Shown: positions 1 to 56,690 of the stretch, one piece after another
Numbering within the stretch: the stretch's first letter is position 1
Layout: each line of letters opens with the position of its first letter
The notes under the pieces: generated by a model
Database searches by the model: none
What the model was told of the DNA's origin: nothing
Seen by the model: the letters and a program-made list of their open reading frames with translations, nothing else
Source: Yuukianura sp. NJ FZ-2021
Taxonomy: Eukaryota
Assembly (NCBI GenBank): GCA_046563655.1
Contig: CM102284.1
Coordinates: 3,286,001-3,350,000 of the forward strand
Length of the DNA: 64,000 nucleotides
Reading direction: 5' to 3'
Program-made: the position numbers and the translations under genes

Positions 1-1191
1 TGCGGGGCAGCCAACGACGAGTTCGCGATTGTTGCTAATTCGTTCAGATTCAATTCGCAAGTATACAGCGACAAAATCTTTTTTGCAATGATTGACTTTG
101 ATGAAGCTGGGGCCATCTTCCAATCGGTATTCTTGTTTTAAATAGTTAACATATCATATCCTCGCATCATATTTCTACATTACTTAAAACAAATCTATTG
201 TTTTTTTTAAGATGAAGCTGTACACTGCTCCCGTGTTTATCCACTTTCCAGCGAAGGGGAAGCCTTTGAACCAAGACAAGATGGACATTCAACGGTTTGG
301 AGTAGAAGCTGAAGCCATTGCTCGCTGGATTGCTGACCGAACTGACGTTCAAGTAAGGCGTTGACGAATTGGTTCTTTACGTGAAACAAATTATATCGCA
401 CGGGCACATAATGATGGATTCTTGTGTTGCAGATTCGAATCTTTAGGCCGCCAAGTTACTCTGGCACAATGGCGCTAATCATCGTTACTGTTTTGGTTGG
501 AGGTCTTCTTTATCTCAAGAGAAACAATCTGGAATTTCTGTACAACCGACCGGCATGGGGAATTGCATCTTTGGTATGAGTTTTAACATCCTATTTACAA
601 TTTAAGATGCGGATCTCTCTTTATCTTAACGTTTCTTAATTTTTTTTTCAGTTCATCGTTTTTTGCTTCACGTCTGGTCAAATGTGGAACTCTATCAGGT
701 ATTTCAGTTCGCAGTTTTAGCAAAAACGTTAACTGAATTCGAGTATCACTTGTTCAGATCTTTCATTTCCTAATTTCATTTCACTAAATCTAACGTTAAA
801 TTGAAACTTGATTGTTTTTAGAACACCGCCAGTCGTAAGCCGAACACAAAATGGTGGGATTTCCTACATTCACCGTTCCTCTCAAGGTCAATTGGTCATT
901 GAAACTTACATCGTGTTTCTCTTGAGTAAGTAAAGCCATTCCAGATTCCAATATCACTACTATAGATAGTAATATTGCCACTTGATTATAATCTTCTTCT
1001 CCTTCACAGATGCAGCTATTACGCTCGGCATGATTCTGCTAATCCACGCTGGGAAAGGAAAGGGTGACATCCGGAAGCGGCGAATCATGGTCATCGTCGG
1101 ACTCGCTCTTTTTGCAATCATGTTTGGCATGCTTCTGTCCATCTTCAAGAGCAAAGCCTCTGGCTACCCATATTCCTTCATTATCAACTAA
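1..1191 (+). CDS. MAGT1: Oligosaccharyltransferase OST3/OST6-family subunit (MAGT1/TUSC3-like), 5'-truncated by the window edge; exons 1-126, 212-352, 433-573, 652-698, 822-925, 1010-1191
   Basis: Spliced translation gives ...[94 protein letters not shown], which are family hallmarks. All introns are GT-AG with consistent phase. MAGT1 vs TUSC3 cannot be distinguished. Confidence 0.92.
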
Positions 1192-1383
1192 TTACTTACT
1201 ACAGTCCAGCTTACCATCATACTTATTCTTACGAATAAAACATCACCCACATTTTTAGAATAGTTAATTCCTTTTCCTTGTTTTTAAAGAAAAAGAAGTG
1301 ATTTGTGATGTTTAAATTGCGACATTTAATTATTGAATTGTACTTATTACATTATGTTACAGTTGGAACCATTTGTTTAGATC

Positions 1384-2774
1384 TTAGTAAATGTATGGGA
1401 TAATTGCCTTTCGGTTCTTCGGATACTCAGGAAACTTTCGTTTGTACCACAAATGGTTCATCCCACCAGCAGTAACCTTTGAACGAAAAATCAGCATGTA
1501 AATCATTTTATTTACATTTTACTTTACTAGTTGTGACTCACGACTTCTGACTTTGTGTGACTCTATTCGTGACATGATTTTCATTGAAATTCGATTCTTA
1601 CCTGATTTGCAAAAACCCAAAACAAAACTGCGAGCCAGCAGGAGTTCTGAAAAGACAGCATGAGGGCAAAGGATATGTAGATTAGGATTTCAGCAAAATA
1701 GTTCGGGCACGAAACGAGTTCAAAGAGGCCTCCGCGTGGGATTTGGTGATTGCGAGTGACGACCTTGTCACCTGAATAAATTAGAACAAAATTAGTTTAA
1801 ATTGTTCCGAGTTTTGACAAGCTACAACAGAAATTGCACAACAGGAATATGAATTAGTACCTTTCTTCCGTAAATTGGCGAAAATCACATGAGCTTTGTT
1901 TTGTTGAATGTTTCCATACAGGAATAAGACGATTCCCATCCACTGCGCAACTCCAAAATCGTTCCAGTTCCAAGTCCAAGTGGACATCACTACATAACGT
2001 CACATCCAAACCAAAGGTAAATATCATCACTAAATGTAAAAATTATGAATTTAGTTAGAAATCTTTACCGTTTGCGCTCTTGGACTCTCCAGTAAATCCT
2101 GGATTGTTAGCGATTAAGCTGAGTGCCGATCCAGTGTAATGCACGAAAGCTACGACGTAGTGTATTATGTTCATTTTCGTATCCCCGTACACGCTCACAT
2201 ATTTTGATTCGTACAAACGCCGAGTAACATGGAACAGGAACAGAAACGACACTAGAAGTGCAGTTGAATGAGGGATCACTGAAAACAGCACAAAGAAAAG
2301 ACATACAAGTTAAAACCGCAACTTGTTGCATACGAATTTCTTTTCTTTCAACTTACCAAATGTGTTTTGAGAAGTTGGCACCAGATAATGCACAATGCTG
2401 GACAGCCATCCGTAAATACTGGATTGGTTTGGATCCGACCCGCGGACATAGAGATTCACGAGAGTGAGGAAAATGCCGGACTGCGCGATGGCAATGTAGA
2501 GGTAAAAGTGGGCGAACCAGCTACAAAATTCAAAAAATTGTTAATTTCAAGTAGAAGTTCTTGATAAAAAGATGGAGATGTTTCACCTTTTTGGAACCTC
2601 GATCGATCGTACAAACGCAGGCTTTTCCTTGGACGGAGCATTGGCTTTGCCGTAGCGACCTAACTGGAGTATCACAGCCGGAACGGTAATAATTCCATGC
2701 TCAAAAAGACCAAGCAAGGAAATGAATATGCCAAGAACTACGTACAAAACTATGATCACATTGATTTCGGACAT
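1384..2774 (-). CDS. SRD5A3: Polyprenol/polyprenal reductase (steroid 5-alpha-reductase 3 family), multi-exon
   Basis: Motifs include LGRYGK..EVPKR, HVTRRLYESKYVSVY..KMNIIHY, QQNKAHVIFANLRK, HQIPRGGLFELVSCPNYFAEILIY and C-terminal HLWYKRKFPEYPKNRKAIIPYIY*. Confidence 0.92.
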
Positions 2775-3340
2775 GTTTGAACACAATAAAGCACAGCCCG
2801 TATAGGAAACCAAGAAAGATTAAAATTACTTAATAAAATTCTTATTTATGAATCTCAGGCACAATTCATATGAAAAAATACAAAAACGAACTTTGCGCTA
2901 TACAGTCCACAAGGGCGAGTTGAGTATTTTAGATTAAGATTAGTAAATCAAAAACTGAAGTGGAAGAAACAACAATAGCAAAGTTGTGAACTATGAAGTA
3001 TGAACTATGTTCTGACCGTTCAAAGGTAGATGCCAACAACCAAGAAACTTCTAGAAAACGCCAAAAGCTTGCGGATGCGCTCAACGTTAATTTCTGTAAG
3101 GAATTACCGATCTATTTTTAGATTTCGTATTGACGGACAGTTGACTACTGCGATATGGAACGTAGCGCCTGATGCAAAACTCTATGTGCTGCTTGATCCG
3201 AATGACTTTGCTGAGGAAAATTCAAAAATCAGTGAGACATTTTAATTTCGTTCAGCGTATTCATTTGTTTCGATAAAACATGTAGATTTAAGATGAAAGG
3301 AATCATAGAGTTGTTGTTTGACAACCTTTATAGGTCGATA

Positions 3341-3747
3341 TTATTCATCACACTCGTAGTCCGCAGGATTCTTACGCTTGGACTTCTTGTTTATTGCATT
3401 TGCTTGAGTGTAAACCAGGAAGAACAATGCAGCGACTGAAAATAAACAAATAAGCGGTATTTAGACCTTAAGGAATCTACGTCGATTGGCATTAGCATCA
3501 TCCGAGCGAACTGGATCTATAAATGTCGATCGTGTTTCGTGTGTCAGAAATTGGCAATTGATGAAGGATGACTATTTAGTGACTTACATGGAACGGTGAT
3601 AAAAACGCTTTCCCTGAAGCGTCTGAAGGTATTTGGGACCCCCTTGGAAAGTATTCCAGCCAACGCCCTTTGCTCGTAGGGAGAAATTGAGTAAGTGATG
3701 AGTCCCCGAATCTTCACACCCAAATTTCCGAATGCCAAATGACCCAT
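3341..3747 (-). CDS. UQCRQ: Cytochrome b-c1 complex subunit 8 (QCR8); exons 3747-3588 and 3435-3341
   Basis: MGHLAFGNLGVKIRGLITYSISPYEQRALAGILSKGVPNTFRRFRESV..KSKRKNPADYECDE* matches the UQCRQ pattern. Confidence 0.93.
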
Positions 3748-5045
3748 GACCACCAGGATTCGTCGTCCAATCGACGATTTTCGTTCAATGTCGTAACTCA
3801 CGACTCGTAAGACCGGAGTCGATGACAGAATGTTGAAGAGAAGTGAATCTGAATGACGAAAATATGTAAAACAACACCAAACACTGGAAAAATAAATAAC
3901 AAAAATTACAAAGACGAGAGAGAACAAAACTCAAAGCATAGAACAAAGGATTCAAAAAATTTGGAGTATTTGGTAGCGCGCCAGACCATACCATCCCTTG
4001 GCTATTCGTTGCCAGCCAGCGGGTTGGAGTAAGGTTGAACAATAGTAATTGTTACCACATGGCATAGCTACTTTGCGGCTTTAATCGGTGAACGATGAAG
4101 TGCCTTCACTATGTGGGGATGCTTAGTTTCGTTGCCATTTTAGGTTGGGTTTAGTTACGTTAGAGCGTTCACAAAAGATGCCATTTAAGGTCATGATGAT
4201 GATGGCTACATTTTGAGGTTATTTTTCTATTGTTGTTAATACTTAACCGAAAACCGACAATTTAGTTTCCACCAGAGATGGTGCGCAACGCAGGTTACAA
4301 TAAATGCTAAGTATCAATGGCGTCTGCGAAAGTGAAAGCACAACTTTCTAACTATTCGATAGGGACTCCGGCCTTTATTTACATTCACCATTAATTAAAT
4401 TGCAATGAATGAATAATTAAAAATTTCAAAGATTTCCCATTTTTGTATCATATCTGAAATATCATCTCACATATTAGTTTAAGTTTGGATGATTATTTTT
4501 TAAGAAGATTGAAGATGACATAAGGAGTTTCCTGGCGGAAGAGACCTTGAAGATAGAACTGGTTCCTTCCAGTTTCAAATTGAAACTTCCAATTCCAGTT
4601 CCGCATCCGCTTCCTTTATGGCAAACCAGTTTCAGTTTCTTCCTCTAATGGAGATGAATCAGACTCAACTTCCCTAACTTACTTTGGAAAATCATCAAAA
4701 TATGAAATCAAAAGTCAATTGACCATTGGAATTTTTTATTAATCAGACAATAGTTCATGAGCCTTTGGAATAAAAATTAATTTTGGAAATTCTAGAAATG
4801 ACGAAGGACTTATCCACCATGACTTTTGAACGTGTTTTAGCAATACTACTGCTACTTTATTATTCTAAATTACTAATAATTGGTAAAGCTCTACCCAGAT
4901 GTGATTACCAGTACATGCAAGTGGCAAGTTATCCATCACATTCATCACACCTCGTTGTTTTTTTGTGACACAAAGCCTCGTAGTGAGTGCAATGGCTTTA
5001 AACAATAAATTAGTTTATGCTTGACCTAGAAGGTGAACGGTTAGC

Positions 5046-6185: not shown

Positions 6186-6866
6186 ATGCCAAGCGACTCT
6201 CACTCTGCAGCTACTACTAGCCTAAGCCTAGTCAGTGAAGCTTATCATGGCGGGGAGTGCCGACACAGTAGGCCAGCAACCTGTCACTCCGCCGGCTCCA
6301 GCACTCCTGTGCTCCAGAACCTCATGAAGTCCCGACGTGCCGGATGCCAGACCGGGTCAAGGTCGAGGTCAAAATCCCCCTCGGTCACCACTGCGACACT
6401 GTTTCTGTTGGCGTTGCTGGCGCTGGACTTATCACGGGTGTCGTGTATGCCAATTCTAGCGACACAAACAGAATTCCCCTCCAGTGACGCTTCAGTGTCC
6501 AAACAATATCATCACCACCATCGTCACCATCATAGACACCACCTTCATCGTGAAAGACACAAAAACCACCACAAACACCTCCAATTCGAGAGCGTCGAGG
6601 TAAGAATGCTCAACAGTTCTATTTTTCTGCTATACGTGATCGAAATGACGTAACTCCTACATTGTATACACTATCTTGTCACAAACATTTTAAAGCAAAT
6701 ACTTCTATTTTTGCAGATACTTGACACAAGTGGTTCGCTCTCAATAGTTACTCCACTGGATGTCCTGAGACAGAACATGATCTTGGAGATTCAGCGCAAA
6801 CGCCTCCGTGAAGCCAAAGACAAGCAGGTCAAAATCAACTCAGAATTCCTGGAACGAATTGGATAG
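6186..6866 (+). CDS. Dh44: CRF-like diuretic hormone (DH44) precursor; exons 6186-6599 and 6717-6866
   Basis: The last exon encodes ILDTSGSLSIVTPLDVLRQNMILEIQRKRLREAKDKQVKINSEFLERIG*. This has the SLSIVxPLDVLRQ...N..FL..IG signature and a terminal Gly for amidation. The hydrophobic segment TATLFLLALLALDLSRVSC is signal-peptide-like. The start codon is uncertain (6186 or 6323). Confidence 0.88.
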
Positions 6867-7827
6867 GCTCTCTCTCATAGTTAGGCGCTCCCGTTCGTTC
6901 GTTCCAGCGATGTCCAAACACACGCTCCTAACTTATTTCCAACGAAAATATCGCAAGAAATCGAATAAAGGCAACGACCACAATTTCCAGCCTCTTTTCT
7001 ATGACCACCGTTTCTAAAATCTAGAGCTTAGAGCTTTATATATTGCATCAAGCGTATAACTTTAATTATTTCGCCTGAATTAAAATAATTCCTAGCATAG
7101 GAAACTCATCTCATCCATGAGACTGATCTTCAAATAAAATATTACAATTTCTAAATGAATCGTATTATTGACATAATTCTGAATCAATTTATACAATAAC
7201 TTACACTTTTTGTAGAAGCTAGTTTTCCATTGTGATTAACGTGTTGCTGTTTTAGGCGTCTTTGACGAACAATAATACAATGCATTCGGAAAATAAAACT
7301 ATGGGGGTGGGGGTTTAGTTTTATCGTTAGGTAATTGTCATTAAAAGTAAGTTAATCAATGGTTTCGAAAGAAATTTTTTTAGCTACTATTAGTGATCGT
7401 TTCGCTATAAATTAATGATAGCAGCAGGAAAACTTCGATTAGGTTGAACTTACTAAATTACGTTTACATGTTATTGAGCAGTGTTGCTGGATATCCACTT
7501 ATTTTGACATTTCATACATGGCTGTGCATCCACTGCTGGAAGAAATGGACGAAATAGATGAATCCAAAGGGGCGGAGCTTGCCCTCGGGGTTGGAATTAT
7601 TTAAATACAAAAAGCTGAAACAATGAAAACATATAGTACAAAAACGTAAAACGGAGTACATTATCGTTTTAAAACAAAGTTTAATTATTTAATTTTAACG
7701 GCAAAAGAAAAGCTTTTGATATTATTTTATAATTTTAAATTTCAATTTCGCTCTAAATTTTTGATTTCTTCCATCCATTAATAGTTTCGTCCATTCGAGG
7801 CGCATTTCTTAGAGTGGATTAATTTTC

Positions 7828-10289
7828 TTAACTTTCGCTTCGAGGTAAATAGACGTTCCGTTTCAGACATGAGATACGACAGTCAAGGCACTCCGATTTT
7901 GTAGTATAAATAGAACCACAAAAGCAGCGATGACATTGGTTTTGATGTTCCTCCCGGGTCATACTAAATTCTGTGTATGGTAAAAGACAGTTGCGACAAA
8001 ATTTACAATGGAACAACTTATGGGCTTCAAAGTCGGCAACATTCTCCATGTTTTTGCTGCAAGAATTGCAGAAATTACACCCCGGATACTTTTGGCCACG
8101 TTCTCTGTCTGAAAAGAGATGCCGAACTTTTCCCCCTGGCTGGAAAGAGAAAGCCAACCGTTAAAACTGCTGGTGACGAATTGTTCATCATCATCTTCAT
8201 CATAGATAACTTACCGTAAAACAATGTTGGAAGCAGACGCACGACGAACAGCGTAAGGCGTGAGAGTCTCCTGAGGATACCCATAATGTTCGATAACACC
8301 CACAGCGTTGATCTATGCGTGTTGTAGGATCATGCTCCAACACGTGCTGGGCGAATTCCTCGGGAGTGAACTTTATGGGAACCGGAACAGCAGTGCGGAG
8401 ATTGTGCGACTCCTCATCGCCCTGGGCATAACATATCCCGCAATGGTAGACTCCCACTTCGATTGATGTCGTAGTTAATAAATACTTAGGGAAGGACACT
8501 GGCCACCGAGAAAGAGGAGGAAAAACAGTATTTTAGCTCCGGACATTAAATTGAGAGTGTTTGACCCTTACTCTTAGCTTGGGACTGTGGAATTCTCAAG
8601 GTGACCGCGCTACCGGAACTGTCCTTCCATCGACTTACTACGCGGCTTTCCCCGCATTTTCTCAATTTCTCTTCGAATCTAGCAATTTCTTCGGGAAAAT
8701 CCGTTTCATTGCAGTCCAGAATAAAGCTACTGTAAATATAAACGTTATCTGTTATCATCCCTATTTACAAATAAGCAAATAATCCCATACCCTGTCACAA
8801 AATAACGTAAGCCAGTATGGTCGCGACTTAAAGTTAGGCCTTCACTGCCGAATACACCTCGCCCATTCAGTAACTATAGAGAGTTAGAACAAAATGGTCG
8901 TTGTAATTTTTCGGTTTTTGGAGTTTGTCATAAGTTCAGTGCATACCATTTGTTTGAGACGAGGATCCTCTAAATGTTCAATTAGACATTTGCTAGTCTT
9001 GGACATCGAACTTGCTGTCTCGGGTATAGCCTGCTTACACTGGGCAACATGGAAATCGATATTGTCGCTGTTAGGTTCGTTTAAATTCTGTAACGCAATA
9101 CATAATGTCGTTATTGAGCTTTCACATCCATATAGAGTGGATGAAAATCCAACCTCAGCGTCATATATTCGGGATAGCATCGGGTAGATCGGCCCCAGCA
9201 GTTTTATATAATCGAGAAATTCGTCATGATATGCATTTCTCATATTTAATATTGGATCCTTCCAAATAGCACGAAGACACCAAATTGCTAATGTCCGTTG
9301 AGGAATTATCTCATATTCAAGGATCCACTGGAATCATCAACGTATGTGAGGAGAGGATGATGATTAATATAAAACTTCATAGAATCAATAAACCTGGTAA
9401 CTTACATTAAAACAATGCACTGTGTCCGACGGCTCACGTGTCGCTGACGAGTCGGAAAATGGTTCACTCATCCAATGACAAAGTAGATTTAATAAATAAC
9501 TAATTTCATCGGGTGTTGATGTTACGCTCTTGAAAAACGCGACAATACAGCTGTCGCTTAACTACATCAAACGTGACAGAAACGATAAGAAAAAATGGTT
9601 CCATGCCATTGCATCAATTGAGTTGTGTCAACGACAATTGTATCGATTAAATTGTGTCAATTTGAATTGCAGCAACGAGCCAATTGTGTCAACAAGCAAA
9701 TTGTGTGAACTAGCGAATTGTGTCAACTACAGAATTGCATCAACCATAGAATTGCATCATTCTTCCTCCGAGGTTCATCTTCTGGGTTGCCAGCGACGAT
9801 TTGGATCATCCACATCTCAGTAAGGCTTAGCATCAAGGATGTGCTAGTTGACAAAACTCATCAGTTGACACAATTTCCCAGTTGATGCAATTCGCCAGTT
9901 GACACAATTGGCTCGTTGGTCGTTGATACAATTCAAATTGACACAATGCAATTGATACAATTGTCGTTGACACAATTCAGTTGATCCAATTGCGTGCACC
10001 CGGAAAAATAACTTGGTGATTTTCTGTTATTATAACTTACCTCTCGTCGCCAGTTGTTGGCACGCAATGTCAACTTTAAGGCAGCAAAAAAAGTACCACA
10101 GAGTTCACTTGTTAACTTGCGCTTGGTGCAATATTCCAGGATTATATCGAATTTCCAAGGGGTACGAGCACGTTTGGCTATCACTCGATCTCGTCTCCAC
10201 ATAAGAAACACATTCTCCACCGTTCGGCGTATATGAGCAAGGGCATCTGAATGTGTATTTTCATTCGATAGAATTTCATTGGATGACAT
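7828..10289 (-). CDS. Uncharacterised ~540-aa protein with C-terminal Cys/His zinc fingers; 7 exons: 10289-10041, 9561-9406, 9327-8947, 8873-8791, 8729-8572, 8498-8215, 8139-7828
   Basis: Five separate track ORFs plus two short exons join in frame through six canonical GT-AG introns (1623 nt, no internal stop). It contains a canonical C2H2 motif (CNSC-x12-HKLFH), a C2HC motif (CRNC-x13-HQNQC) and CGIC...HVLEH. Confidence 0.75.
9597..10001. mobile_element. Non-autonomous foldback/MITE-like element with modular TIRs, inserted in intron 1 of the Zn-finger gene
   Basis: Starts GGTTCCATGCCATTG and ends CAATTGCGTGCACCC. The arms are inverted arrays of AATTGTGTCAAC-like sub-repeats (e.g. CAACGAGCCAATTGTGTCAAC vs GTTGACACAATTGGCTCGTTG). 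The flanks AGAAAAAAT/GGAAAAATA resemble a degenerate TSD. Confidence 0.8.
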
Positions 10290-10927
10290 CCTGAGAGACG
10301 TTACAATATTTATTTTCTCATACTAGTCCATATCGTTTAATTGTTGTCACTTTGTCATAGCAGTTAGTCCCACCAAATCCAAAGAGGGTATCCGGTGTCA
10401 CTACACTTAACAGTATTAACCCAGTTTAACGAATTAGATGAACTTAAGTAAGCAGTTTCCAGGTAACTTTCTCCCTCTTCACAAAATTTGATTTCTCGCA
10501 GAAAAGAAAACCCCACAGAAAAATGTTTGCCAGGACTGATAAACTATACGCATGAGGCGTGAGAGCAACAACCTTGGTTGCATCAATGGAACTGATTAAC
10601 TTCGGAAGAAGCGTATCTTTATCTTACGCATTGGACACACCACCATGGTATACACTAAAAGTTTAGGTTTAGCTTCGGCATTAAGGAGTAAGAAGTAGCG
10701 TAGTTGCCAAACTTCAAACTTAACACAAACCATCATGCTACGTATAGGGTAATATAGCGTTGACAAAACATCAGAGAAAACTAACGCCACACCGAACCAC
10801 GAAAAGCGACGGAGTTGACTTTTGTGGCTTTTGGAGGGACTCTTTCACCTGACAAACTCACTTCGGAGAGGACGGTACTAAGACCAGAACACACTTCGGA
10901 AGAGGCGGTACTACTTCTTCCGGACAC

Positions 10928-11682
10928 AGTGGATTCTCTAAATAAGGGAAAAAATCACGATTGGAGGATTGGTAGTAGGCGCCTCCCCCAGTACCGTAAG
11001 ATTTCTGGTAAACGGTCAGTTATATGGAATTTAAGGCTAGGAACACCATTCTAATGAAAATTTCCTGTTTCCAAGTTCAGAGTATATAATTAATATTAAT
11101 ATATATAATATTCATATATTAATGCTAATTATATGTGATATCTATATACGTATCAATACTATATGGTATATTATATGCAAATTACGTTGTGAATGTCACC
11201 CTTATTAAACAGGTTATATAATATAATATATTATATACAGCGCGCAGTTGCGCAGTTTGTGCGCAGTTGCGCAGTTTGTGCGCAGTTGCGCAGTTTGTGC
11301 GCAGTTGCGCAGTTTGTGCGCAGTTGCGCAGTTTGTGCGCAGTTGCGCAGTTTGTGCGCAGTTGCGCAGTTTGTGCGCAGTTGCGCAGTTTGTGCGCAGT
11401 TGCGCAGTTTGTGCGCACTTGCGCAGTTTGTGCGCAGATATATATATATATATAGCATAACTATATAAATATTATATATATTAATATTAGTTAATTTCAT
11501 TTAATTATCTAATTACTTTTGTTTCGCACCAAAAAAAAATTAACCAAAAAAAACAATCGTAAAAAATAAGCCGATAAACTAAAACATACGTTCCCTCCAA
11601 AATTAAAACTTTACGGTACCGCGACTTCGAGTGAAAGTGAGAAAGAGGAGAAGCTCCTGTCCCTTAATTTAGAGAATCCACT
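10928..11682. repeat. Concentric inverted repeats (10928-10949/11660-11682; 10991-11004/11606-11619; AT-rich ~11086-11135/~11445-11497), probably nested MITE termini
   Basis: Three arm pairs can be read directly: AGTGGATTCTCTAAATAAGGGA vs TCCCTTAATTTAGAGAATCCACT; GTACCGTAA vs TTACGGTAC; TAATATTAATATATATAATATT vs AATATTATATATATTAATATTA. Confidence 0.75.
11242..11436. repeat. Tandem minisatellite, ~10 copies of 19-bp GCGCAGTTGCGCAGTTTGT
   Basis: Near-perfect array with one visible substitution near 11418. Each unit holds two TGCGCA palindromes. The array is flanked by (TA)n-rich DNA. Confidence 0.97.
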
Positions 11683-11930
11683 ACTTACTAACTTATTGTC
11701 CCCCACTTTTTGTCAACAAGGAAATATCAGTGGCTTTAGGTTCCTATTAGGAAATACATTAATTAACTATTTAAACCGATTTTGCTTAATTGATTCGGCT
11801 ATTAGAACTTATTTTAGCATGATTTGCGGTTGTTTTTGATTTCTTTTCGATCTTTTTTATCAAAATGCATACCCCGCGGGCAAAGCTCTGCCCCTTTGGA
11901 TGTCTTCCATTTCTTGCACCGGATATCCGG

Positions 11931-12198
11931 TTGGATTATACTCATCTTAGAAAACAGAAAAATTTCGAGAGGGTCAATGACATCTCCAGACAACCGAAAA
12001 AATGACTTCAGCAAGTTGTTGGGCTTGATGAAGGGATCATTTTTGTCCTCTGACATACGACCGTGTCCTTCCGTTGAGGTTATAGGTCAATTGGAAAGTT
12101 AGTTCGGTCATTTTTTCATTCATTTTTTCGGAGTCTGGAGATGTCATTGACCCATCTCCTCGAAATTTTTAACATGTACCCACATGGGTATAATCCAA
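11931..12198. mobile_element. MITE-like element with ~75-95 bp imperfect TIRs
   Basis: TTGGATTATAC..AAAAATTTCGAG..GGGTCAATGACATCTCCAGAC..CCGAAAAAATGA is mirrored by TCATTTTTTCGG.AGTCTGGAGATGTCATTGACCC..CTCGAAATTTTT..GTATAATCCAA. Confidence 0.75.
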
Positions 12199-13079
12199 TC
12201 CAACCCATTACAGCACAGCATGTTAGTGGAGAAAGTGATGCACTTCTTAAGTTTTCTCTTTGCAGAGGGAGGGAATTGGAATTTTGGCTCCAACTTAAAA
12301 TGCTTTAGATAAGGAAAGGGAACGGGGGGATTCCAGCAGTGCCTTATTTAGACTATAACTAGAGCCGTAGACGCAACAGGGAGGTCACCATACCTTTATT
12401 ACCCTTCCACCCGCCGGTCATATTCTCTGACGTTGAAGAGGATCCCACCCAATCCGATCTCCCGTACTCCCGGTTAGCCCTCGTCAGCCTCAGTGGGTCC
12501 GAATTATCCGAAAACGCATCTCCGAACATCCAAGACGAAGACCATCTCCATTCACTTCAGCATCTCGTCTTCTCGTCAAAAACAACCGCGGCACCCGCCT
12601 TCCCATCATCATCCTATCCACCCGGCAGCGGCACGCATCAAGATCAAACACCAAGAGAGACGGACGAAAGAAAGGAACGAACAGCGACGGAGGGAGCAAC
12701 GGAAACGTGACGACGGCTTTGTCGTCCTATTCCTCGCCCTTTATTGTTAGAGGCTAAGCTGACTAGAAGACAGGAGAGAGAGAGACAGAGAGCACTGACT
12801 GAATCCAGTGACCCTTGAGTGATAATCCATCCTCTGACTGTTACATTGAAGTCATCCAAACGAGGTAAAGCTTAAGTAAGTAACCTTGACTCTTTTGGAG
12901 GCGCTGACACCCATTCTGGACTTATGTTTAATAACGGTTTTACTTTTTGTTCAAAGATTCAGCTAAGTTTTCGGAAGGAGATCCAGTCCAGTTCCTAGAC
13001 TATACAACTACGAGAAGATTACCTGTATTAGAGTGGATGTTTGTTTAATACCGGGGATTGAGGCAGAATTCAATTCAAA

Positions 13080-14879
13080 ATGATGAACCGATTCGAACAC
13101 CTTGAGAAAATTGGGGAGGGCACTTACGGAGTCGTCTACAAAGCCAAAGATATGCATCATTCTAATCGAATCGTTGCTCTGAAGAAGATTCGTCTGGAGT
13201 CGTAAGTTTTGTAAACTAGCTGTACCTTGTTACAATTACAAGTCAAGGGAGGAACTACTATAATAATTTGGCGTTTGTCAAACTTTGTGCGGCATTATCT
13301 GGACAAGACAGTACTACTTCAATTTATTCAAACGAGTGACCACTGACCTATGCACACTTACATTTAAGTGGGTAGGGAGCCGTCTCTGTGAATGTAGTGA
13401 TTCCAATTCTATATCACAGCCCCGGTTACCCTATCTACTTAGATTGGAAAACATCGAGGAGATTCAAAGTGGTTGATTTCAGGGTAACCTTTATCGTGTT
13501 GTGTGGTATTTGATAGTGAACTATTTGTATTTAAGGCATGTCGGTAGTGCTGCTGCTAAACAGTTAGGACGTAGAAGGTAATGAATCCCACTGATCTGCC
13601 TTTTCCGTTTGTTCCAGGGAGGCCGAAGGAATTCCAAGCACTGCCGTGAGAGAGATATCTCTTTTGCGTGAACTGGATCATCCAAATATTGTAAAGATGC
13701 TGGATGTGATTCACTCAGACAAAAAACTGTACATGGTGTTCGAGTACATGGAGATGGACCTAAAGAAGTAATTTTGGGCCATCTTGATGATGATGATGAT
13801 GACCTCGGAATTAGAATGATTAGACTTTGATTCTCATTCGATAGGTACATCGACACCCAGCAGACTCATGGACTAGCCATTCCTCAAATCAAGTCATACG
13901 TAAGCCTTTCTGCAGAAGCAGAACACACTTTGCTTTTTGGTTTAGTAATTGCTTCTGGTACCACTATCTAAATTCGTTTTGGTTTCCACGTTACAGCTGT
14001 ATCAAATTCTGAGAGCACTCATATATTGTCATACTCATCGAATATTGCATAGAGATTTAAAGGTATGTCATAAAGAAAGTCACACTGTCTTTGTCTTTTC
14101 CAACTTCTTAGCAAATCGGTTAAACATAACGTGTGTCATTTTTTATAGCCGCAAAATCTTCTCCTGGATTCCAAAGGAAACCTGAAACTTGCTGATTTTG
14201 GTCTTGCCAGAACCTTCTCTATACCCATGAGAGCCTATACTCACGAAGTTGTGACACTTTGGTACAGAGCTCCAGAAGTCCTGCTGGGAACAAAGTATTA
14301 CACGACCACAGTCGACCTCTGGAGTGTTGGCTGCATATTGTCAGAAATGGTAACTTCATTACCAGTATAATGTTACGAAATGAAAACTCACGATTTAGGT
14401 TATGACCTACGACCATGACCATCGGTCACATGGACATGATGAGTTCGGGCGTCTGATAATAAGTTTTATTTTTTGTAACTTGCAGCTCACGAGCAAGCCT
14501 CTTTTTCCTGGCGACTCAGAGATTGACCAGTTGTTTCGAATTTTCCGCACTCTTGGAACTCCGGACAACAGTATCTGGCCAGGGGTGTGTCAACTTCCAG
14601 ATTTCAAGGCTTGTTTCCCTCGGTGGGCTCCACAGAACCTTCGCATATTATTTCCAATCCTTGGAGTTTATCCGGATGCTTTTGATCTTCTGAAGGTATG
14701 TCTCTAAAACGGTTGAATTGGATAAGGTACATGTTTCAGATTACGTACTTTGTACATCACTTGATTTCATTTTGGTGTTTAACTTTCAGTGCCTCCTCAC
14801 CTACAACCCGTCAACAAGAATTCCATCAACGGAAGCTTTAAAACATCGATTCCTGGCCGACGTGAAGTTTCATACGTAA
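13080..14879 (+). CDS. CDK2: Cyclin-dependent kinase 2 (cdc2c-like), 7 coding exons
   Basis: Motifs include [76 protein letters not shown] and [21 protein letters not shown]. The [13 protein letters not shown] segment is CDK2-like. Confidence 0.92.
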
Positions 14880-17666: not shown

Positions 17667-19671
17667 ATGGACACAGGGGACACCTACAGGTCAGTGTTCA
17701 GGTCATTCCTAAATCATTAGTTCATGAAATCTTTTTAACTTTACTCTTTTTTTTGTAGATGCTGCCTCCCTGCGAAGTCCACAAAATCTGACCTTGGGAT
17801 CTGGTCAGTACTGAAAAGTTGCGTGGGGAAGGATCTGTCCAAGATTACGATGCCCATTCAGTTCAACGAACCACTGTCCTTTCTACAACGACTTGCGGAG
17901 TCACTGGAATACAGTCATCTCCTGGACATGGACACTTCAAGCGAAGTGGAGAGAATGGAGGTACTCAATCCAAACTCAACTTAATCAATTTTCACTGAAT
18001 AACACTAATTTGCAATTTTGAAATTCCAGATTGTTTCGGCTTTTGCAATTTCCAATCTTGCGAGCAACTGGAATCGTTTGGGCAAACCGTTCAACCCACT
18101 CCTAGGCGAAACTTACGAATTACAAAGAAATGGCATCAGGTATGTCCGTTTCCAAAACTTTTTTTTTGCTCAAATACGATTGAATTGAGAGCTGAACAAA
18201 GCGTTTGAGAGTGTAGTGGGGGCAAAGCTATCAAATCGCACATTATTCTGAATTGTTGCAGGTTCCTTTGTGAGCAAGTTTCTCATCATCCTCCGATCTC
18301 TGCTTTTCATGCAGAATCTGCAACGTTTGTCTTCCAAGGCTGGATATACCCGAAACTAAAGCTAGGAGCAAAGTCAATCGAAGTACATCCCAAGGGAAAT
18401 GTCCGTCTTTATCTAAAACGGTACTTATTATTCACCTCAGGAACTCAATTCGCTTGGAATTGCAAATTGAGTGTTGCACATTTTGAATTTTTAGTTACAA
18501 AGAGACATACACTTGGGGAAACGTCAACTGCTCAGTCCATAATGTGATCGTGGGTAAGTTATGGATTGAGCATCATGGACACATGAACATTCACTGCATC
18601 GAAAGCGGATTATCTCTCAACCTACATTTCAAAGCCGCTGGATGGTTCAACAGCCAACTACATCGCGTTGAGGGATTCATTCTGGACAGCAAGTAATGCG
18701 GCCATCTTAGATTTGACCTTTAGCATTTCTTTCTCCACATCATAAAATTCAGTATAATTTTTTTGAGATTCTAGAATAATTGTTTGTTTTTCTCATTTTA
18801 GTAAGCAAAAAGTCCGGTTTGTGTACGGTAAATGGACAGAGGCCCTGAAATCTACGGACATTGAGTCCTACGAGGAATTCGACAGTAGTAGCAGCGATCA
18901 CAAGGCGAAGTAAATTCTCACTACTAAATTATTCAGCGTTCAATTGAGTATGTAGCAATGATTTCTTTCACTTGTGTATGTATGTTTTAGGATGCTTGGA
19001 GAAAGTTCAAGTGAACCGAACTGCTCCCTGGGGAAAAAGTCTCCCAGTGTAAGTCCTAAACCAGGCAAAAAAATGTTCCAGAAACTCAACTCTTTATCGC
19101 TCCGTTCTTTCAGCACAAGCGCAGAGGTAAGGCTCAATTCCATTCTGGACAAACACATTTCAAAACTTTTTTTTTCAATTTGGAAATGTAGCCCAAAGAC
19201 GAACTTTCTCCGGAAGCCCAGGATGATCAACCGAGGTCAGAGGAGGAGATGATAGACATTCCAAATTCCAGGACTCTTTGGGAAGTGCGTGAACGGCCTG
19301 AATTTTCCGCAGACGTAAGTATTTTTACGTTTGAATCCAATTAACAATTCAAAAGTGACTGGAGTAACTCATGGATTTTTGATTTGCAGTACTATAATTT
19401 CACTTCCTTCACGATGACTCTGAATCAAATTCTTCCAAATATGGTTCTCTGCCCGACGGATTCCAGACTCCGGCCGGACATTCGGAAAATGGAGGAAGGC
19501 GATTTGGAAGGAGCTGGAAGCGAGAAGCAGCGATTGGAAGATCAGCAAAGGAAAGTACTCAAGAGCAAGGTGGAAATCAATCCGAGGTGGTTCGAGAAAC
19601 ACGGAGCCGACTGGACATTCACAGGGGACTACTGGAACTGTTCCAAATCCCATATCACGTCTATATTCTAA
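17667..19671 (+). CDS. Oxysterol-binding protein-related protein, short ORD-only form (ORP1/ORP2-like)
   Basis: Motifs include [44 protein letters not shown], the family signature [23 protein letters not shown] and [24 protein letters not shown]. Confidence 0.92.
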
Positions 19672-20152
19672 AACCTATACAAGATACAAATCAAAGGAAC
19701 TAAAGGTTGTTCTGGATATCGTCCGAGATTAAGAAGCTTCTGTTGTAGATTCGCCTACTGTTACCTACTTAGGAACATTAGACAATAGAACGGTGATATC
19801 AGTAACTTTAGTAGAAGCAAAAGCTAGAACTCCAGAATTGTAATTGTCTACGGTATAATTTACGCTAACCGCTTTTACACTGATGAGAGTAATACTTTAG
19901 AAAAACTTAGGACCCCACCAAACTATTTTTGTGCTCTACAACTGCTAGTATTACCCCGCACTGAAAGAAATCTGAAGAGATTCCGAAGGAATAAAAGTGG
20001 AAATGGCAAAACGTTGAATGGGTTCGTTAGGACTTGTGCTGCATTGATTTAAGATTCCAAAAACGTCCACATTTATTCCCACTCGAAGAACTGCAGGATT
20101 GGACACACAAGGTCATTGATATCCATAGGAATTTTAAGAAAAAGAGACTTGT

Positions 20153-20817
<665 letters not shown>

Positions 20818-32800: not shown

Positions 32801-35800
32801 TGTACAAATCACTACAACAAACTTTTCAAAAAAGAAAAAAAATGAAGTGTTAATTTGAGTATACCGAGTTCAAAACCGGAAAATTGTCATTAACATCCGT
32901 TAGATTAACTATGAGCTCCAGAATTGTGTAATGTTTGGTTGAAGTGTTTCCGTATTCATCGTAGGCTACAATGTACGCTTGGTAAAATGGGACGCCATAC
33001 GGTGGATCTCGATCCAATTTCTGGAAAAAAACAACAGAAAAGTTCAACTTTGTGTTAACTTTCTACAAAAACTGTAAATGTTGACCTCTGACCTGCTTGA
33101 CTCGAACACATCCCGTAATTGCGTCAACAGAGAAAAAGTCGCGGGCTTTCACATCCACTACATAGTAAATTCCTTGAGGCGCAGACCTGTCGGCAATGTC
33201 CGGATCATGTGCAGATACATTAAAAATGCAATAGTCCGGAATAGTTTCTTCTTGGATTGTCACAGTTTTTTCAATTTCTTCAAATGCTGGTGGATTGTCG
33301 TTGATATTTGACACTAGAATTGTCACTGTCGTAAAGTCTTCGTGAAAAGAATCGGAGGCCTTGACTCTAAGCTGGTACCGTTTTACAGTTTCATGGTCCA
33401 GTGGCTTTTCAATTGAAATGACCCCACGTTCCGATGTCGTTTTCATGCTAAATTGACCTTCCGGATCGCCATCTTCAATTGTATAGGTGATTTCGGACTC
33501 TGAAAACATTACCAAGTAGTAGTCATTGCAAATGCATCAGATATTTTTCAACTATCAGCAAAAACTGTCGCCCAGTATCGATAGATTGTTCAAACCGGTA
33601 TCTGGATCGGTAGCTTGGACTTCGAGAACCATTGTTCCAGTATCGGCATTTTCTGGAATCTCAGCCTTGTACCCCCCTCTCGGTTGGATAAAACGAGGCG
33701 CGTTGTCATTTCGATCAGCAATTTCAATTTTGATTTGTTCTCTACCTAAAATCCAAAGTAATTTGAAAGTTTTAAATCAAAAATGAAAATGTTCAAAGTA
33801 TTTTTTAAAATCAAGATTATTTTGAACAAATTACGCTCATTTGGAAGCCCCAGTGGATTTGGTTTAATAATTGCAGAAGGTGCGCCGTCTCTAGCAAATA
33901 CTTCTAGCTGGAACACGTCTTGTGACTCACGGTCAAACGGCCTGCGTGTTTTTATTTCGCCTGTCATAGAATCTATGCTGAAGTCATCTACGTAATCCGA
34001 TCCCAGGGAGTAACTAACCTGTAAACACAAGTATCAGTTTTCAGTTAACCTTGGGCAAACTTAAATTACATAAACTGAAGTTACATAAACTTGAAAACCG
34101 TACCAAATTATTTGGAGAAGTTCCGTCCCTATCAATAGCTAGAACGCGTATGACTGCTGTACCCGGCGGGGCGTTTTCTGGCACGCTTGCTTGTTTCACG
34201 TCTGAGAAAAAGGGCCGTTCGTCGTTCTCGTCTTCTACGTCTATCCTAAGTACAGTTGTGGCAGCGAGACCATGTTTATTCTAAAAAAAAATGCATAATT
34301 CATTTCAAAATTTTGAAACCAATCAGCAAATCTGCAAAATTTTGAAACCAATGTTATGAAATCCAGAAACTCACTGAGACACGGACAGTAAGAAAGTAGA
34401 GATTGACTAATTCGTAGTCCAAAGGTTTTTCTACTCGGATGAAAACTTTGTTCCCGGTTGGTTCGGAAGTAAAAATGGAGTCTTTGTTTGTTGCCTGTGT
34501 TTGGCCATTCAGAAGCTCAAAAAATACTAATGAACTATTGGCAATGCCAGAAGTAGCTTCCAGCTCTGCTATTGGACTGAGGCGATCATGACTTAGTTCC
34601 TTGATTGTAATTGGTTCAGAATATTCTCGCACAAAAGTCGGTGGCTTTTGGTTTGGTTCGATCACTCGAATAGAAAGATTCGTTCTGGAACTTTGGGGAG
34701 GATCACCGTTGTCCGACGCCACAGCAACAACGGTGTACATCCGTTCGGCGTCTCTGGAATCGGGAAATCTGTGACGCAGACGCACTTCGCCAGTGTCGGA
34801 CGTAACTTCAAAAAATGCGGAATCATGAGTTGAAGTGTGGTTGTCAAAGGAGTATCGAACTCTGCCGTTGTTTCCGTCGTCAATGTCTGTAGCCGAAATG
34901 CGCATGACGATTGCTCCTGCAGCAACGTCTCTAGGAACGGATTCACGGTACTCCTGCAAAACCCAAAAAGTAAACTAACACCTAATACCCGAATGTCACT
35001 CAAAGATATTTGACTAGTAACACGATCGAATTTAGAAGTAGATTTACCTTACGATTACCGTAAGCCTTATTACGTATGCAGCACAGAAAAAAAATGAATA
35101 GTTTACTTTTGCGGAATCAAAATTTTTTTCAACTTCCACGCCATTCTGTACTAATTTTTATGGAATTTGCAGGATCCAAAGAATTTTTTTTAGTTTTGGC
35201 GTGGCAATCTTGCAATGTTTGTGAATTTCATAATTTTGAATTTTGACTTACGAATTTATCAAACATTGGGCGGTTGTCGTTGACATCGCGAATGGTGACC
35301 TTAAGGTTACAGACGTCGTCGAGTTGAGGTCGTCCATTGTCAGTTGCTCGGACGGAAACGTAGGCAACTTTCTCCCGCGTCGGTTCGTCACGGTCAAAAA
35401 TCTGAACGGGAAAATTATTTATTATATTATATGTATAATATTTAAATATTATTATAGAAGTTAATAAATTCTTTAAAAAGTTGGTACAGTAAGGACAAAG
35501 AATTTGTCACTTGCCTTATTGGTTCTTAGCCACCCTGTTTGGCTGTCCACTGCGAAGAAATCTGTTGTCTCTACAATGGAGTACGTGACCTTACCCCCAG
35601 CATTTTCAGGGTCAAGGTCAATCGCCCGAACCTACAAGGTCATTGAACTTTTAGTACATCTGTGACAAGCATATGTGAGTGTGTGATTTACCTGGATCAC
35701 AGACGTATTGATGGGCTGATTCTCATAAACTTCGGGATTGTACGTCTTGCATAATGTGAAGTTTGGTTTGTGTACGTTGTCTACTACAACTGATTGAAGG

Positions 35801-45282: not shown

Positions 45283-45854
45283 CTAATCTTCATTTTCTTG
45301 TAGGTAAGCCAATTCCGCTGGCGTTAGGGGTTTTGTCACACAGAAGCTCGTACAAATCCTTTAAAGAATTGAAAAGATTTAATGTAAATTAAAATAATTT
45401 AATTAATTAATTAAATTTAATTAAGTTTACCTTTGGAGTACGTAAATAATAATTGGGCAATAGACAATTAAAGTGAATAGCCAGACCCAGTGCCCTAAAC
45501 TCGATCCGTATCGTTTGAACACAATGAGCCAGAATGGGGTGACGAATCCAATGAATATCATAATATTGAATTTGGTTTGTAAACGATTGATCTTCTTTCC
45601 TATCCGCTCCATGTCCTTGTCAGCATCGCGATCTCTAAAATTGACCCAAAAATATAAATTCTGTTAGTTTTCTTAAATTGTTGCTTAATTCTATAATAAT
45701 TATAGAATGTTATATTATATTATATTTGCCTATTTTAATAAATATGCAAGTATTACGCTTCACTTGGTGGGGGTAGTTCCATTTCCAGTACAACTGGAGA
45801 AGGAGCATTGTCTCCACTGTTGATGTCTTTGACAGTGTCTGTGGAATTGGACAT
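45283..45854 (-). CDS. Uncharacterised 125-aa protein with two predicted TM helices; exons 45854-45757, 45634-45431, 45358-45283
   Basis: Three exons join in phase through GT-AG introns: MSNSTDTVKD..DMERIGKKINRLQTKFNIMIFIGFVTPFWLIVFKRYGSSLGHWVWLFTLIVYCPIIIYVLQRICTSFCVTKPLTPAELAYLQENED*. Confidence 0.65.
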
Positions 45855-55701: not shown

Positions 55702-56690
55702 TACAAACTTTCATTTCATTACCTTGATTTTTAATACTTGGAAGCTGTAGAAACTGGTTTTTTAGCGAAGTTTTGTAGAAAAGTCAATGATTTTGAAAAA
55801 TTCACCGTAACTTGCAACATTTGCTTTATAGTGGTACTAAAATTTTAGGCCAAACCATGCCAAACTTTGAAAATCCAAAATGAATGTAGGTTAGTAGAAA
55901 ACAAAAGGAACGCGGATGAGGAAACAGGGAAAGTTAAACAATAGAATTCGCGTATCAAACCACCTTTTGTTCTTTCGCTCAAAAAACTAGAATTTGACAT
56001 TTACATTTTTCAAGTTTCATGAGGCTAACCGGCTCACCCGTAATTCTATGGGGATTGTAACTTGGAGAAAGCAACGTTTTTTTTTGAAATGTTCAGTTTT
56101 GGATTCGGTTCATTTCCTTCTATAATTTTATATCAAATTCAAAACGACAAAAGCTGAAAGTGTTCAAAAACTTTGTCAATTCGTATAAATCAGGCAAAGT
56201 TCTAAGGAACACAATTTTCATTTCCACTTTCTCTCTGCATCTCAACCCTTTCATTGTTATTAAAAGTTTTTCAAAATTATGACAACGTTTTCAATTTCCG
56301 TTACTTTTGGCAGAAAGTGTTTGAAAACCGGAAAGGGGAAAGCATTCGAAGCTTTCTCCGGAGCTTTTTCCTCTCTCCATCCGCCGTCTTAACTTTCTCC
56401 TTTCTGAGTCCTACTGCGACAATCTTACTGTTATGAGTTTCTGAAGGATTTATTGCTAAAGCCAAAAGTTGATTTTTTTTTCTTATTCGGAACTTTTTTC
56501 CCTATTATTGAATTCGGCTCTTACACAAAAACGAAAATCTGCTCATTTCTCTTTTGTTTCATATTTGAAACTTCACTTTTCTCCCGGAACTTTGGAAATA
56601 TTACAATCCAAGTCGTCAAAACCAAAAAGCAGCTGGAGACCGAAGCGTCCTCTTTATGAGTTTTAGGTTTAGGCACCATTACATTGCGTT

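Follow-up and report, generated by a model that had tools for sequence, protein, structure and literature searches.

The 4.44-kb interval that lies between a DH44-like gene and a CDK2-like gene, and that is bounded by two inverted-repeat arms, is most probably an ordinary, young gene of a springtail-like animal with transposon relics on either side. The particular history that we favour, in which a resident, lineage-specific gene is bordered by remnants of a single MITE-like repeat, has in our judgement an even chance of being correct. As it stands, the window (the whole 64-kb stretch of DNA that was analysed) holds an intact gene that has no relatives in the searched databases and that lies amid at least four small palindromic repeats, a result that is useful as annotation and not surprising in a MITE-rich genome. 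The features on which the argument is built are as follows.

6654..6863, plus strand: left neighbour, CRF-family (DH44-like) exon (E 6.8e-8)
7489..7632, plus strand: left arm, from alignments and shuffles, with a period-9 repeat at 7537-7555
7828..10289, minus strand: orphan gene of 7 exons and 540 aa, from the spliced reading frame
9597..10001, no strand: foldback or MITE-like palindrome in intron 1, from repeat searches
10928..11682, no strand: 22-nt inverted repeat pair around the array unit (10928-10949 vs 11682-11660)
11087..11493, no strand: AT-rich inverted repeat enclosing the 19-nt array (11087-11143 vs 11493-11436)
11830..11928, minus strand: right arm, matching the left arm in reverse complement, from alignments and shuffles
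11929..12205, no strand: separate MITE with inverted ends, abutting the right arm
13595..14367, plus strand: right neighbour, CDK2-like protein-kinase exons, with CDK2 as the best solved relative

The orphan gene and its protein

The spliced reading frame of the gene runs through seven exons (10289-10041, 9561-9406, 9327-8947, 8873-8791, 8729-8572, 8498-8215 and 8139-7828, with the stop at 7830-7828) and six introns of 479, 78, 73, 61, 73 and 75 nt, all of them GT-AG and phase-consistent. The intact frame is 1623 nt (540 aa plus stop); in the control for the spliced-ORF search, 30 shuffles gave 330 ± 105 nt with a maximum of 567, and the opposite strand gave 471 nt. This 540-aa model, in which intron 5 is 73 nt, supersedes one of 513 aa in which that intron was 154 nt. 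Together with the gene, 1.5 kb of upstream region is enclosed, and no second gene-like frame was found inside the interval, the best spliced frames having lengths of 285-453 nt on the upstream side of the gene and 90-213 nt on the downstream side. By tblastn, the 64-kb window holds no second copy of the gene. Four DNA sequencing runs, all of a single sample and study, contain the window (shares 0.87-0.42), and no RNA run was among those listed, a lack that counts neither for nor against expression. The sequence-only reading had described an intact, multi-exon gene of 540 aa, the only spliced gene in its cassette, placed between DH44 and CDK2, and each of these points was recovered here, the placement by the CRF exon and by the kinase exons (E 1.2e-32 against CDK2). 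The orphan gene converges tail to tail on the DH44-like gene and diverges head to head from the CDK2-like gene. Judged by eye, the ATG is immediately preceded by a good acceptor and a GTAAGT occurs near 11690, two sites with which a 5' non-coding exon close to the right arm would be possible.

To look for relatives of the protein, Pfam was scanned exon by exon with the peptides of both gene models (6 + 5 peptides, 2 common to both sets), and none of the 9 distinct exon peptides matched a family at the curated cut-off; the best E values were 0.2 and 0.54, in a scan whose sensitivity is lowered by the division into separate exons, so that domains spanning exons may have been missed. The same scan of exon peptides held no DDE, THAP, SWIM, Rep, helicase, recombinase or other transposase-linked domain, in agreement with the earlier statement that no transposase, Rep/helicase or recombinase motif is recognisable, and the transposase that marks an autonomous class II (TIR) DNA transposon was thus absent from the exon peptides in Pfam. 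The label 'Zn-finger' fared differently. The last third of the protein is, as judged by eye, rich in Cys and His and C2H2/C2HC-like, with C-x2-C...H-x3-H/C spacing, and of the 32 Cys counted in the 513-aa model, 20 fall within residues 335-501. No Pfam finger family was matched by exons 6 and 7 at E up to 10, the zf-C2H2 profile match that characterises C2H2 zinc-finger proteins was absent, and the label, which no profile supports, goes back to the Cys/His spacing alone. Membership of the orphan protein in any finger family, as read from its sequence, is therefore unproven.

Searches beyond Pfam agreed with this picture. Among PDB sequences nothing was significant, the best match being SNAI1 (E 0.21), and viral contigs held no relative of the protein. 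For exon 7, word-indexed searches returned no relatives, and the ESM Atlas gave language-model neighbours at 0.85-0.87 with zf-C2H2 annotated on part of their members (30% of members in the first cluster, score 0.87), which is a weak lead. For exon 3, the Atlas scored 0.94 to unnamed bacterial clusters, a recognition below the useful level; the word-indexed search found no relative, and an exhaustive HMMER search of 1.84 billion representatives found no real one. The single HMMER match of exon 3, P0001, is a surface protein from a Gram-positive bacterium and has 9 GA modules; the match was repeat-driven and was set aside. Single-sequence AlphaFold2 models reached a mean pLDDT of 45 (exon 3) and 52 (exon 7), too poor for a fold search, and at this low confidence the modelled parts look helical.

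Inverted-repeat arms and neighbouring repeats

The two arms lie about 4.3 kb apart in inverted orientation. With one long gap allowed, 7489-7632 aligns to 11928-11830 with 79 of 89 ungapped columns identical and a score of 68.6, compared with 20.9 ± 3.9 and a maximum of 35.4 in 300 shuffles; a gapped local alignment (7537-7629 vs 11918-11834) scored 60, compared with 21 ± 2.6 and a maximum of 29 in 200 shuffles. When the arms were searched one by one with blastn through all 64 kb, 7551-7591 matched 11913-11871 (43 nt, 86%, E 3.5e-7), each arm matched only its partner, and no further copy was found elsewhere in the window; in the search of the window against itself the pair was recovered at E 1.6e-4. 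The arm identity of 86-89% is comparable to that of the ends of neighbouring MITEs (79-84%). Both arms end in the 8-nt palindrome GGATATCC (7489-7496 on the left, 11921-11928 on the right), followed in the left arm by a 38-nt insert (7497-7534) that the right arm does not have. A 9-nt subrepeat is present in about three copies in the left arm, from 7537, and as two units in the right arm; beyond it are a GC-rich core (7562-7594 and 11868-11901) and then, in each arm, an AT-rich tail. The indels between the arms measure 38 nt, 8 nt and less. By eye, a GC-box-like run and small palindromes can be seen in the core.

The arm pair thus has the form of the terminal inverted repeats of a class II (TIR) DNA transposon, and its build, with a terminal palindrome and subterminal 9-nt subrepeats, looks like that of working transposon ends. 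No local partner that would complete a small MITE was found for the right arm; for the left arm, the best local match was a partial third copy at 7711-7819, which is marginal (score 46.2, shuffle maximum 44). No duplicated flank was found past the ~100-bp arms. Several other leads on the arms were dropped. The 19-nt core pattern had 4 matches in metagenome contigs, where similarity ends at 19-21 nt, and 4 in prokaryote genome contigs, which are bacterial MAGs, and these were treated as chance. An origin of the arms from a tRNA or SINE was rejected, tRNA being absent from the window; the only Rfam match was a sub-threshold miRNA, located inside the 19-nt array. As nested ends, ATCCACT/AGTGGATT (7-8 nt) was not significant; the 8-mer AGTGGATT matched the window 6 times with 2.8 expected, and 6 matches were reached in 10 of 100 shuffles.

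At the likely ends of the block, a search for a target-site duplication (TSD) of 8-10 nt with up to 2 mismatches gave 0 matches, whereas at least one match was found by the same rule in 51% of 300 displaced controls. The sole exact 8-nt repeat at the ends is the palindrome GGATATCC, part of the inverted repeat itself, and exact repeats of at least 8 nt were reached by 14 of the 300 controls. Nor was a TSD found beyond the MITE that abuts the right arm. For the 4.4-kb block, the TSD of a class II (TIR) DNA transposon was absent at lengths of 4-11 nt, a length of 2-3 nt being beyond recognition. Mutator elements carry a 9-10-bp TSD, and the duplication of this length that a Pack-MULE or Pack-type element would have was likewise absent.

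Three further small and independent palindromic elements lie in the surrounding 5 kb. The intron-1 foldback, to which the sequence-only reading had not referred, takes up 405 nt of that 479-nt intron, its arms are made of 14-17-nt subrepeats, and related stretches lie at 56690-56816 and 37899-37953. Upstream of the gene, the AT-rich inverted repeat (84%, E 2e-9) surrounds a direct array at 11242-11437 (19 nt x 10.3 copies, 98% matches), and the 22-nt pair around the array unit scored 39, compared with 18.9 ± 2.4 and a maximum of 27 in shuffles. The third is the MITE abutting the right arm, whose ends (11931-12005 vs 12198-12120) are 79% identical. Foldback-like elements in the window are found at 9597-10001 and 56696-58264, and the outer arms are unrelated in sequence to this foldback family. 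All other inverted-repeat pairs in the window are the two ends of one compact element, bar three distant matches tens of kb away, two of them in the intron-1 foldback family and one inside the foldback-like element at 56.7-58.3 kb. These results bear out much of what had been read from the letters: degenerate arms of ~100 bp with a shared GC-rich core, a separate MITE at the right end, and no visible TSD. The 'palindromic minisatellite' holds in part, in that the array is real and direct and the palindrome belongs to the AT-rich inverted repeat around it.

Weighing the origin of the interval

We propose that a resident protein-coding locus, restricted to its lineage, occupies the interval in the repeat-rich gap between DH44 and CDK2, and that the arms are copies, old and by now diverged, of a single short repeat built like cut-and-paste transposon or MITE ends. 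They are most likely leftovers flanking the gene, either solo ends or the ends of decayed small elements. With three other small palindromic elements within 5 kb, repeats bearing inverted repeats are dense here, and worn arms beside an intact 1623-nt frame fit a gene that selection has maintained while the repeats on its two sides decayed. The resident-gene reading is further favoured by the absence of a TSD at the likely ends, of a Pfam family among the exon peptides, of a protein relative in the searched databases and of a second copy in the window. Transposon proteins usually have many relatives, and a protein without them, being unusual for one borne by a transposon, counts against a mobile element. 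We therefore infer a host gene, and arms that are relics and not functioning ends; any role of the arms in moving or regulating the gene is putative at most. Against relics stand the exact count of two arm copies in 64 kb, near each other and inverted, for which we estimate a chance of ~7% with random placement (2 x 4.4/64 x 0.5) and which speaks for a shared origin of the pair; their build like working transposon ends together with the want of a clear local MITE partner; and the fact that nearly all other inverted-repeat pairs in the window end one compact element.

A common origin could mean that the whole block is one old DNA transposon of ~4.4 kb, now immobile, with the arms as its terminal inverted repeats and the gene either as cargo (a Pack-type capture of a whole gene) or as the element's own protein of an unfamiliar kind. 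The sequence-only reading had leaned this way, suggesting a cargo-carrying or non-canonical DNA element or its domesticated remnant, and among the tests of that proposal the inverted repeat alone came out in its favour. The highly non-random inverted repeat, the enclosure of exactly one transcription unit by the only copies in the window, the terminal palindrome and 9-nt subrepeats that resemble transposase-binding ends, and an arm identity similar to that of the neighbouring MITE ends all speak for it, as do a size and arm length near the ranges that the available extract on arthropod MULEs gives (below). We nevertheless consider it unlikely, given that a TSD of 4-11 nt, any DDE, THAP, SWIM or other transposase-linked domain (Pfam, exon peptides), relatives of the protein in the searched databases and a second copy within the 64-kb window are all wanting, that the modelled parts are predicted, at low confidence, to be helical, and that a gene that is complete, has 6 introns and comes with a 1.5-kb upstream region differs from the fragments described as usual for Pack-type elements in the extract cited below. 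Put as a non-autonomous cut-and-paste element that carries an intact orphan gene and its promoter as cargo, or an unrecognised element-encoded DNA-binding protein, the same idea is improbable. If true, it would represent transduction of a whole gene by a TIR element in a hexapod and would inform the questions of how orphan genes are dispersed and how new genes come to lie between conserved neighbours; if mobility of the block were demonstrated, it would be a rare case in animals of a TIR element with a whole working gene.

Two near, inverted copies with neither a TSD nor other copies in the window would also be accounted for by a local rearrangement, in which, for example, template switching during repair, or an inversion that broke within a repeat, placed a second and inverted copy of a short repeat a few kb from the first, and the block never transposed. 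Inversions in Drosophila buzzatii are reportedly mediated by Galileo, and ectopic events between foldback-type repeats, which are said to be well known, lend this route a precedent; on the other side, there is no duplicated flank past the arms and no mark of an inversion breakpoint in the window, and we give it a low probability. That the arms are functional for the gene, as convergent binding sites bounding the locus or as a long 5'-3' RNA duplex affecting the message, is very improbable. Read on the sense strand of the gene they could pair at -71 kcal/mol, compared with -31 ± 4 for 200 shuffles, but this energy just restates their complementarity. Also on the side of a function are the acceptor and GTAAGT, which would permit a 5' non-coding exon near the right arm, and the GC-box-like run and small palindromes of the core; the duplex version requires both arms to be transcribed. 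The resident gene among relics remains the reading that we prefer.

Comparison with known systems

MITEs are non-coding and under about 0.8 kb. The interval is coding and 4.44 kb long, and the arms by themselves could be MITE relics. They share with MITEs and solo terminal repeats their shortness and degeneracy, the subterminal repeats and AT-rich inner part, and a setting in which several more small palindromic elements occur nearby; unlike MITEs, they are separated by 4.3 kb with a whole gene in between, and have no TSD and no clear local partner. Compared with Pack-MULEs and Pack-type elements, as far as the available extracts describe them, long inverted ends surround host-like DNA without a transposase and the size is in the MULE range: arthropod MULEs are mostly 2.5-5.0 kb with TIRs typically of 20-95 bp in one extract (PMC13359780), and Pack-type elements usually hold gene fragments and are mostly 1-2 kb in the other (PMC6431247). 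Here, in contrast, no captured fragment is enclosed, the interval carrying one complete 7-exon gene with its introns and upstream region, and the 9-10-bp TSD of Pack-MULEs is missing.

Host DNA mobilised between inverted repeat elements is described, in the same extract, for Ising's Transposing Element of Drosophila melanogaster (PMC6431247). Foldback-like elements are found in this window too, but the arms here are single short repeats and the distance is 4 kb, not hundreds of kb. The gene itself resembles the orphan Cys/His-rich genes of arthropods, which are likewise intact, multi-exon and free of detectable relatives and have the C-x2-C...H-x3-H/C spacing, and it differs from them in the absence of a zinc-finger profile match.

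The paired arms and their surroundings

The interval, a ~4.44-kb block at 7489-11928, is bounded by a left arm (7489-7632) and a right arm (11830-11928). When either arm was compared with the whole 64-kb window using a 7-nt word, the sole match was the other arm, over 43 nt (7551-7591 vs 11913-11871; 86%, E 3.5e-7). Gapped local alignment paired 7537-7629 with 11918-11834 at a score of 60, compared to 21 +/- 2.6 (maximum 29) in 200 shuffles. With one long gap permitted, the alignment spanned 7489-7632 vs 11928-11830, where 79 of 89 ungapped columns were identical and 38 of the 63 gap columns formed a single left-arm insert; the score of 68.6, relative to 20.9 +/- 3.9 (maximum 35.4) in 300 shuffles, bears out the inverted repeat described in a sequence-only reading of the window. 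From outer to inner, each arm carries an 8-nt terminal palindrome, GGATATCC (7489-7496 and 11921-11928), then 9-nt subrepeat units (two in the right arm, three in the left; TRF period 9 at 7537-7555), a GC-rich core and an AT-rich tail. This architecture is that of a cut-and-paste transposon end. The 38-nt insert is bordered by a 7-nt direct repeat, ATCCACT (7493-7499 and 7528-7534), which suggests a small duplication or insertion postdating arm formation.

The same reading had correctly named DH44 and CDK2 as the flanking genes:

6654-6863, + strand: CRF-family (DH44-like) exon (Pfam E 6.8e-8, translation)
13595-14367, + strand: protein-kinase exons (closest solved structures CDK2, E 1.2e-32, then CDK1, 1.9e-30)
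1-4100 and 17700-20600: conserved-gene exons around the locus (Pfam-supported)

The kinase exons include a PSTAIRE-like motif. Exons in the two outer blocks belong to OST3/OST6, a steroid 5-alpha-reductase-like protein, UcrQ, an oxysterol-binding protein and ribosomal protein S11. Ordinary conserved-gene exons thus lie on both sides, and the surroundings are normal gene-dense euchromatin.

The enclosed orphan gene and its protein

Seven minus-strand open segments within the interval connect via GT-AG introns with consistent phases. A dynamic-programming search for the longest spliced ATG-to-stop frame (GTAWG donors, AG acceptors, introns of 55-500 nt) returned 1623 nt, i.e., the previously proposed protein of 540 aa plus stop:

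10289-10041, 9561-9406, 9327-8947, 8873-8791, 8729-8572, 8498-8215, 8139-7828, - strand: orphan gene exons (spliced-ORF search)

A hand-built 513-aa model, in which intron 5 was longer, is superseded by this one. Applied to 30 shuffled versions of the region, the search yielded 330 +/- 105 nt (maximum 567), and the opposite strand gave 471 nt. The remainder of the interval gave frames of just 285-453 nt on the upstream side of the gene and 90-213 nt on the downstream side, and no second gene-like frame was found there. Since all of these frames are short, exactly one gene-like unit is enclosed, as had been claimed. A good splice acceptor lies directly before the start codon (10291, minus strand), and a GTAAGT lies ~1.4 kb upstream of it (about 11687-11692, minus strand). 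On sequence grounds, this pair would permit a predicted 5' non-coding exon near the right arm, with the whole upstream tandem-array unit in a 5' UTR intron.

Pfam searches with nine distinct exon peptides from both gene models (E up to 1 or 10) gave no family at the curated cut-off, and two sub-threshold matches were at chance level (E 0.2 and 0.54); protein tools were run on single exons, from which exon-spanning domains may escape detection. With no family at the cut-off, there is no transposase, Rep, helicase or recombinase, in agreement with the earlier reading, and no zinc-finger family either. The 'Zn-finger' label given to the protein is therefore a reasonable guess from Cys/His spacing. 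Residues 335-501 of the 513-aa model hold 20 of its 32 cysteines, spaced C-x2-C ... H-x3-H/C by eye in the 540-aa model. Word-indexed protein searches with exons 3 and 7 found no relatives, and a scan of viral contigs found nothing. Exhaustive HMMER comparison of the largest exon (127 aa) with 1.84 billion representatives gave one match, a 1226-aa bacterial surface protein with nine GA modules and an LPXTG anchor, which was rejected as repeat-driven. PDB sequence searches returned only SNAI1, for exon 7 (E 0.21), and ESM-Atlas neighbours of exons 3 and 7 were weak leads only. Single-sequence AlphaFold2 predicted exons 3 and 7 to be all-helical at low confidence (pLDDT 45 and 52).

Small palindromic elements in and beside the interval

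The following elements were resolved:

11242-11437, upstream of the gene: direct array, 19 nt x 10.3 (98% matches)
11087-11143 vs 11493-11436: AT-rich inverted repeat around the array (84%, E 2e-9)
10928-10949 vs 11682-11660: 22-nt inverted pair enclosing the array unit (score 39 vs shuffle maximum 27)
11931-12005 vs 12198-12120: separate MITE (79%), beginning directly after the right arm
9597-10001: foldback/MITE-like palindrome with 14-17-nt subrepeats, in intron 1
56696-58264: larger foldback-like element, ~1.57 kb (arms 318 nt, 94% identity)

The array unit (11087-11493), situated 0.8-1.2 kb or so ahead of the ATG, is a near-perfect minisatellite within an AT-rich inverted repeat of 58 nt and looks MITE-like, its centre being occupied by the tandem array. 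The sequence-only reading was right to place a minisatellite upstream and a MITE at the right end; the array itself is direct, and the palindrome is the AT-rich repeat enclosing it. Five introns of the orphan gene measure 61-78 nt, whereas intron 1 (9562-10040) reaches 479 nt owing to the palindrome, which occupies 405 nt; the intron would be an ordinary short one enlarged by insertion, with a predicted long hairpin in the pre-mRNA. Relatives of this foldback lie at 37899-37953 and 56690-56816, the latter similar to 9596-9724 (72%, E 1e-11). The larger element, related to it, has arms of 15-17-nt and 64-nt subrepeats and a centre of about 940 bp. Self-comparison of the window also gave two short self-complementary stretches, 35417-35469 and 45381-45433 (54 nt, 81%). 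With the array unit, the 22-nt pair, the abutting MITE, the intron-1 foldback and the larger element, small palindromic repeats are dense here.

Mobility and origin of the interval

Exact direct repeats of 4-10 nt were sought at every pair of ends in 7485-7545 and 11908-11935. None exceeded the 8-nt GGATATCC, which belongs to the inverted repeat and is separated from the left core by 40 nt; of 300 displaced controls, 14 gave at least 8 nt. Target-site duplications of 8-10 nt with up to two mismatches were absent at the likely ends (at least one in 51% of 300 controls), and beyond the abutting MITE only 5-mers were found, so the failure of the earlier reading to identify a duplication was upheld. 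The window holds no further arm copies and, by tblastn, no second copy of the gene. The 19-nt core sequence had four matches in metagenome contigs and four in prokaryote genome contigs; these were treated as chance, since similarity at the metagenome loci ends at 19-21 nt and the genome matches are in bacterial MAGs.

We give even odds to a resident orphan gene lying between relics of one MITE-like repeat. As worn arms surround an intact 1.6-kb frame, the gene would be a selected host gene and the arms decaying repeats. Several observations favour a common origin of the two arms: they are the sole two copies in 64 kb, inverted and 4.3 kb apart, and by our own estimate two randomly placed copies would be this near and inverted only ~7% of the time. 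No convincing partner lies close to either arm. Three matches to distant stretches, tens of kb off, aside (two belong to the intron-1 foldback family and one falls inside the 56.7-58.3 kb element), all remaining inverted pairs of the window are the two ends of a single compact element. A local inverted duplication or rearrangement is improbable. The arms' predicted pairing energy is -71 kcal/mol vs -31 +/- 4 in 200 shuffles, and we regard a function of the arms as a paired site or an RNA duplex as very improbable; the rest of the probability is assigned to no reading.

That the interval is one old gene-carrying element is unlikely. Against it are the absent target-site duplication and catalytic domain, a protein without relatives in the searches, and a look-elsewhere effect, the locus having been chosen from a very large scan. 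On present evidence, the mobile-element interpretation first offered is the less likely one. The locus is ordinary and well described, with a modest chance of something rarer.

The content of the interval is also unlike known Pack-type elements, which for the most part contain gene fragments and measure 1-2 kb (PMC6431247). According to the same source, Ising's Transposing Element is a composite mobilised between flanking foldback elements, a class to which the outer arms of this interval do not belong. TIR transposons differ in the target-site duplication and transposase, both tested and both lacking here. Most arthropod MULEs measure 2.5-5.0 kb; their TIRs are typically 20-95 bp, and they encode DDE plus zinc-finger transposases (PMC13359780). 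The interval has no MULE domain, but its size and arm length are near theirs, and its arms are built like MITE or TIR ends.
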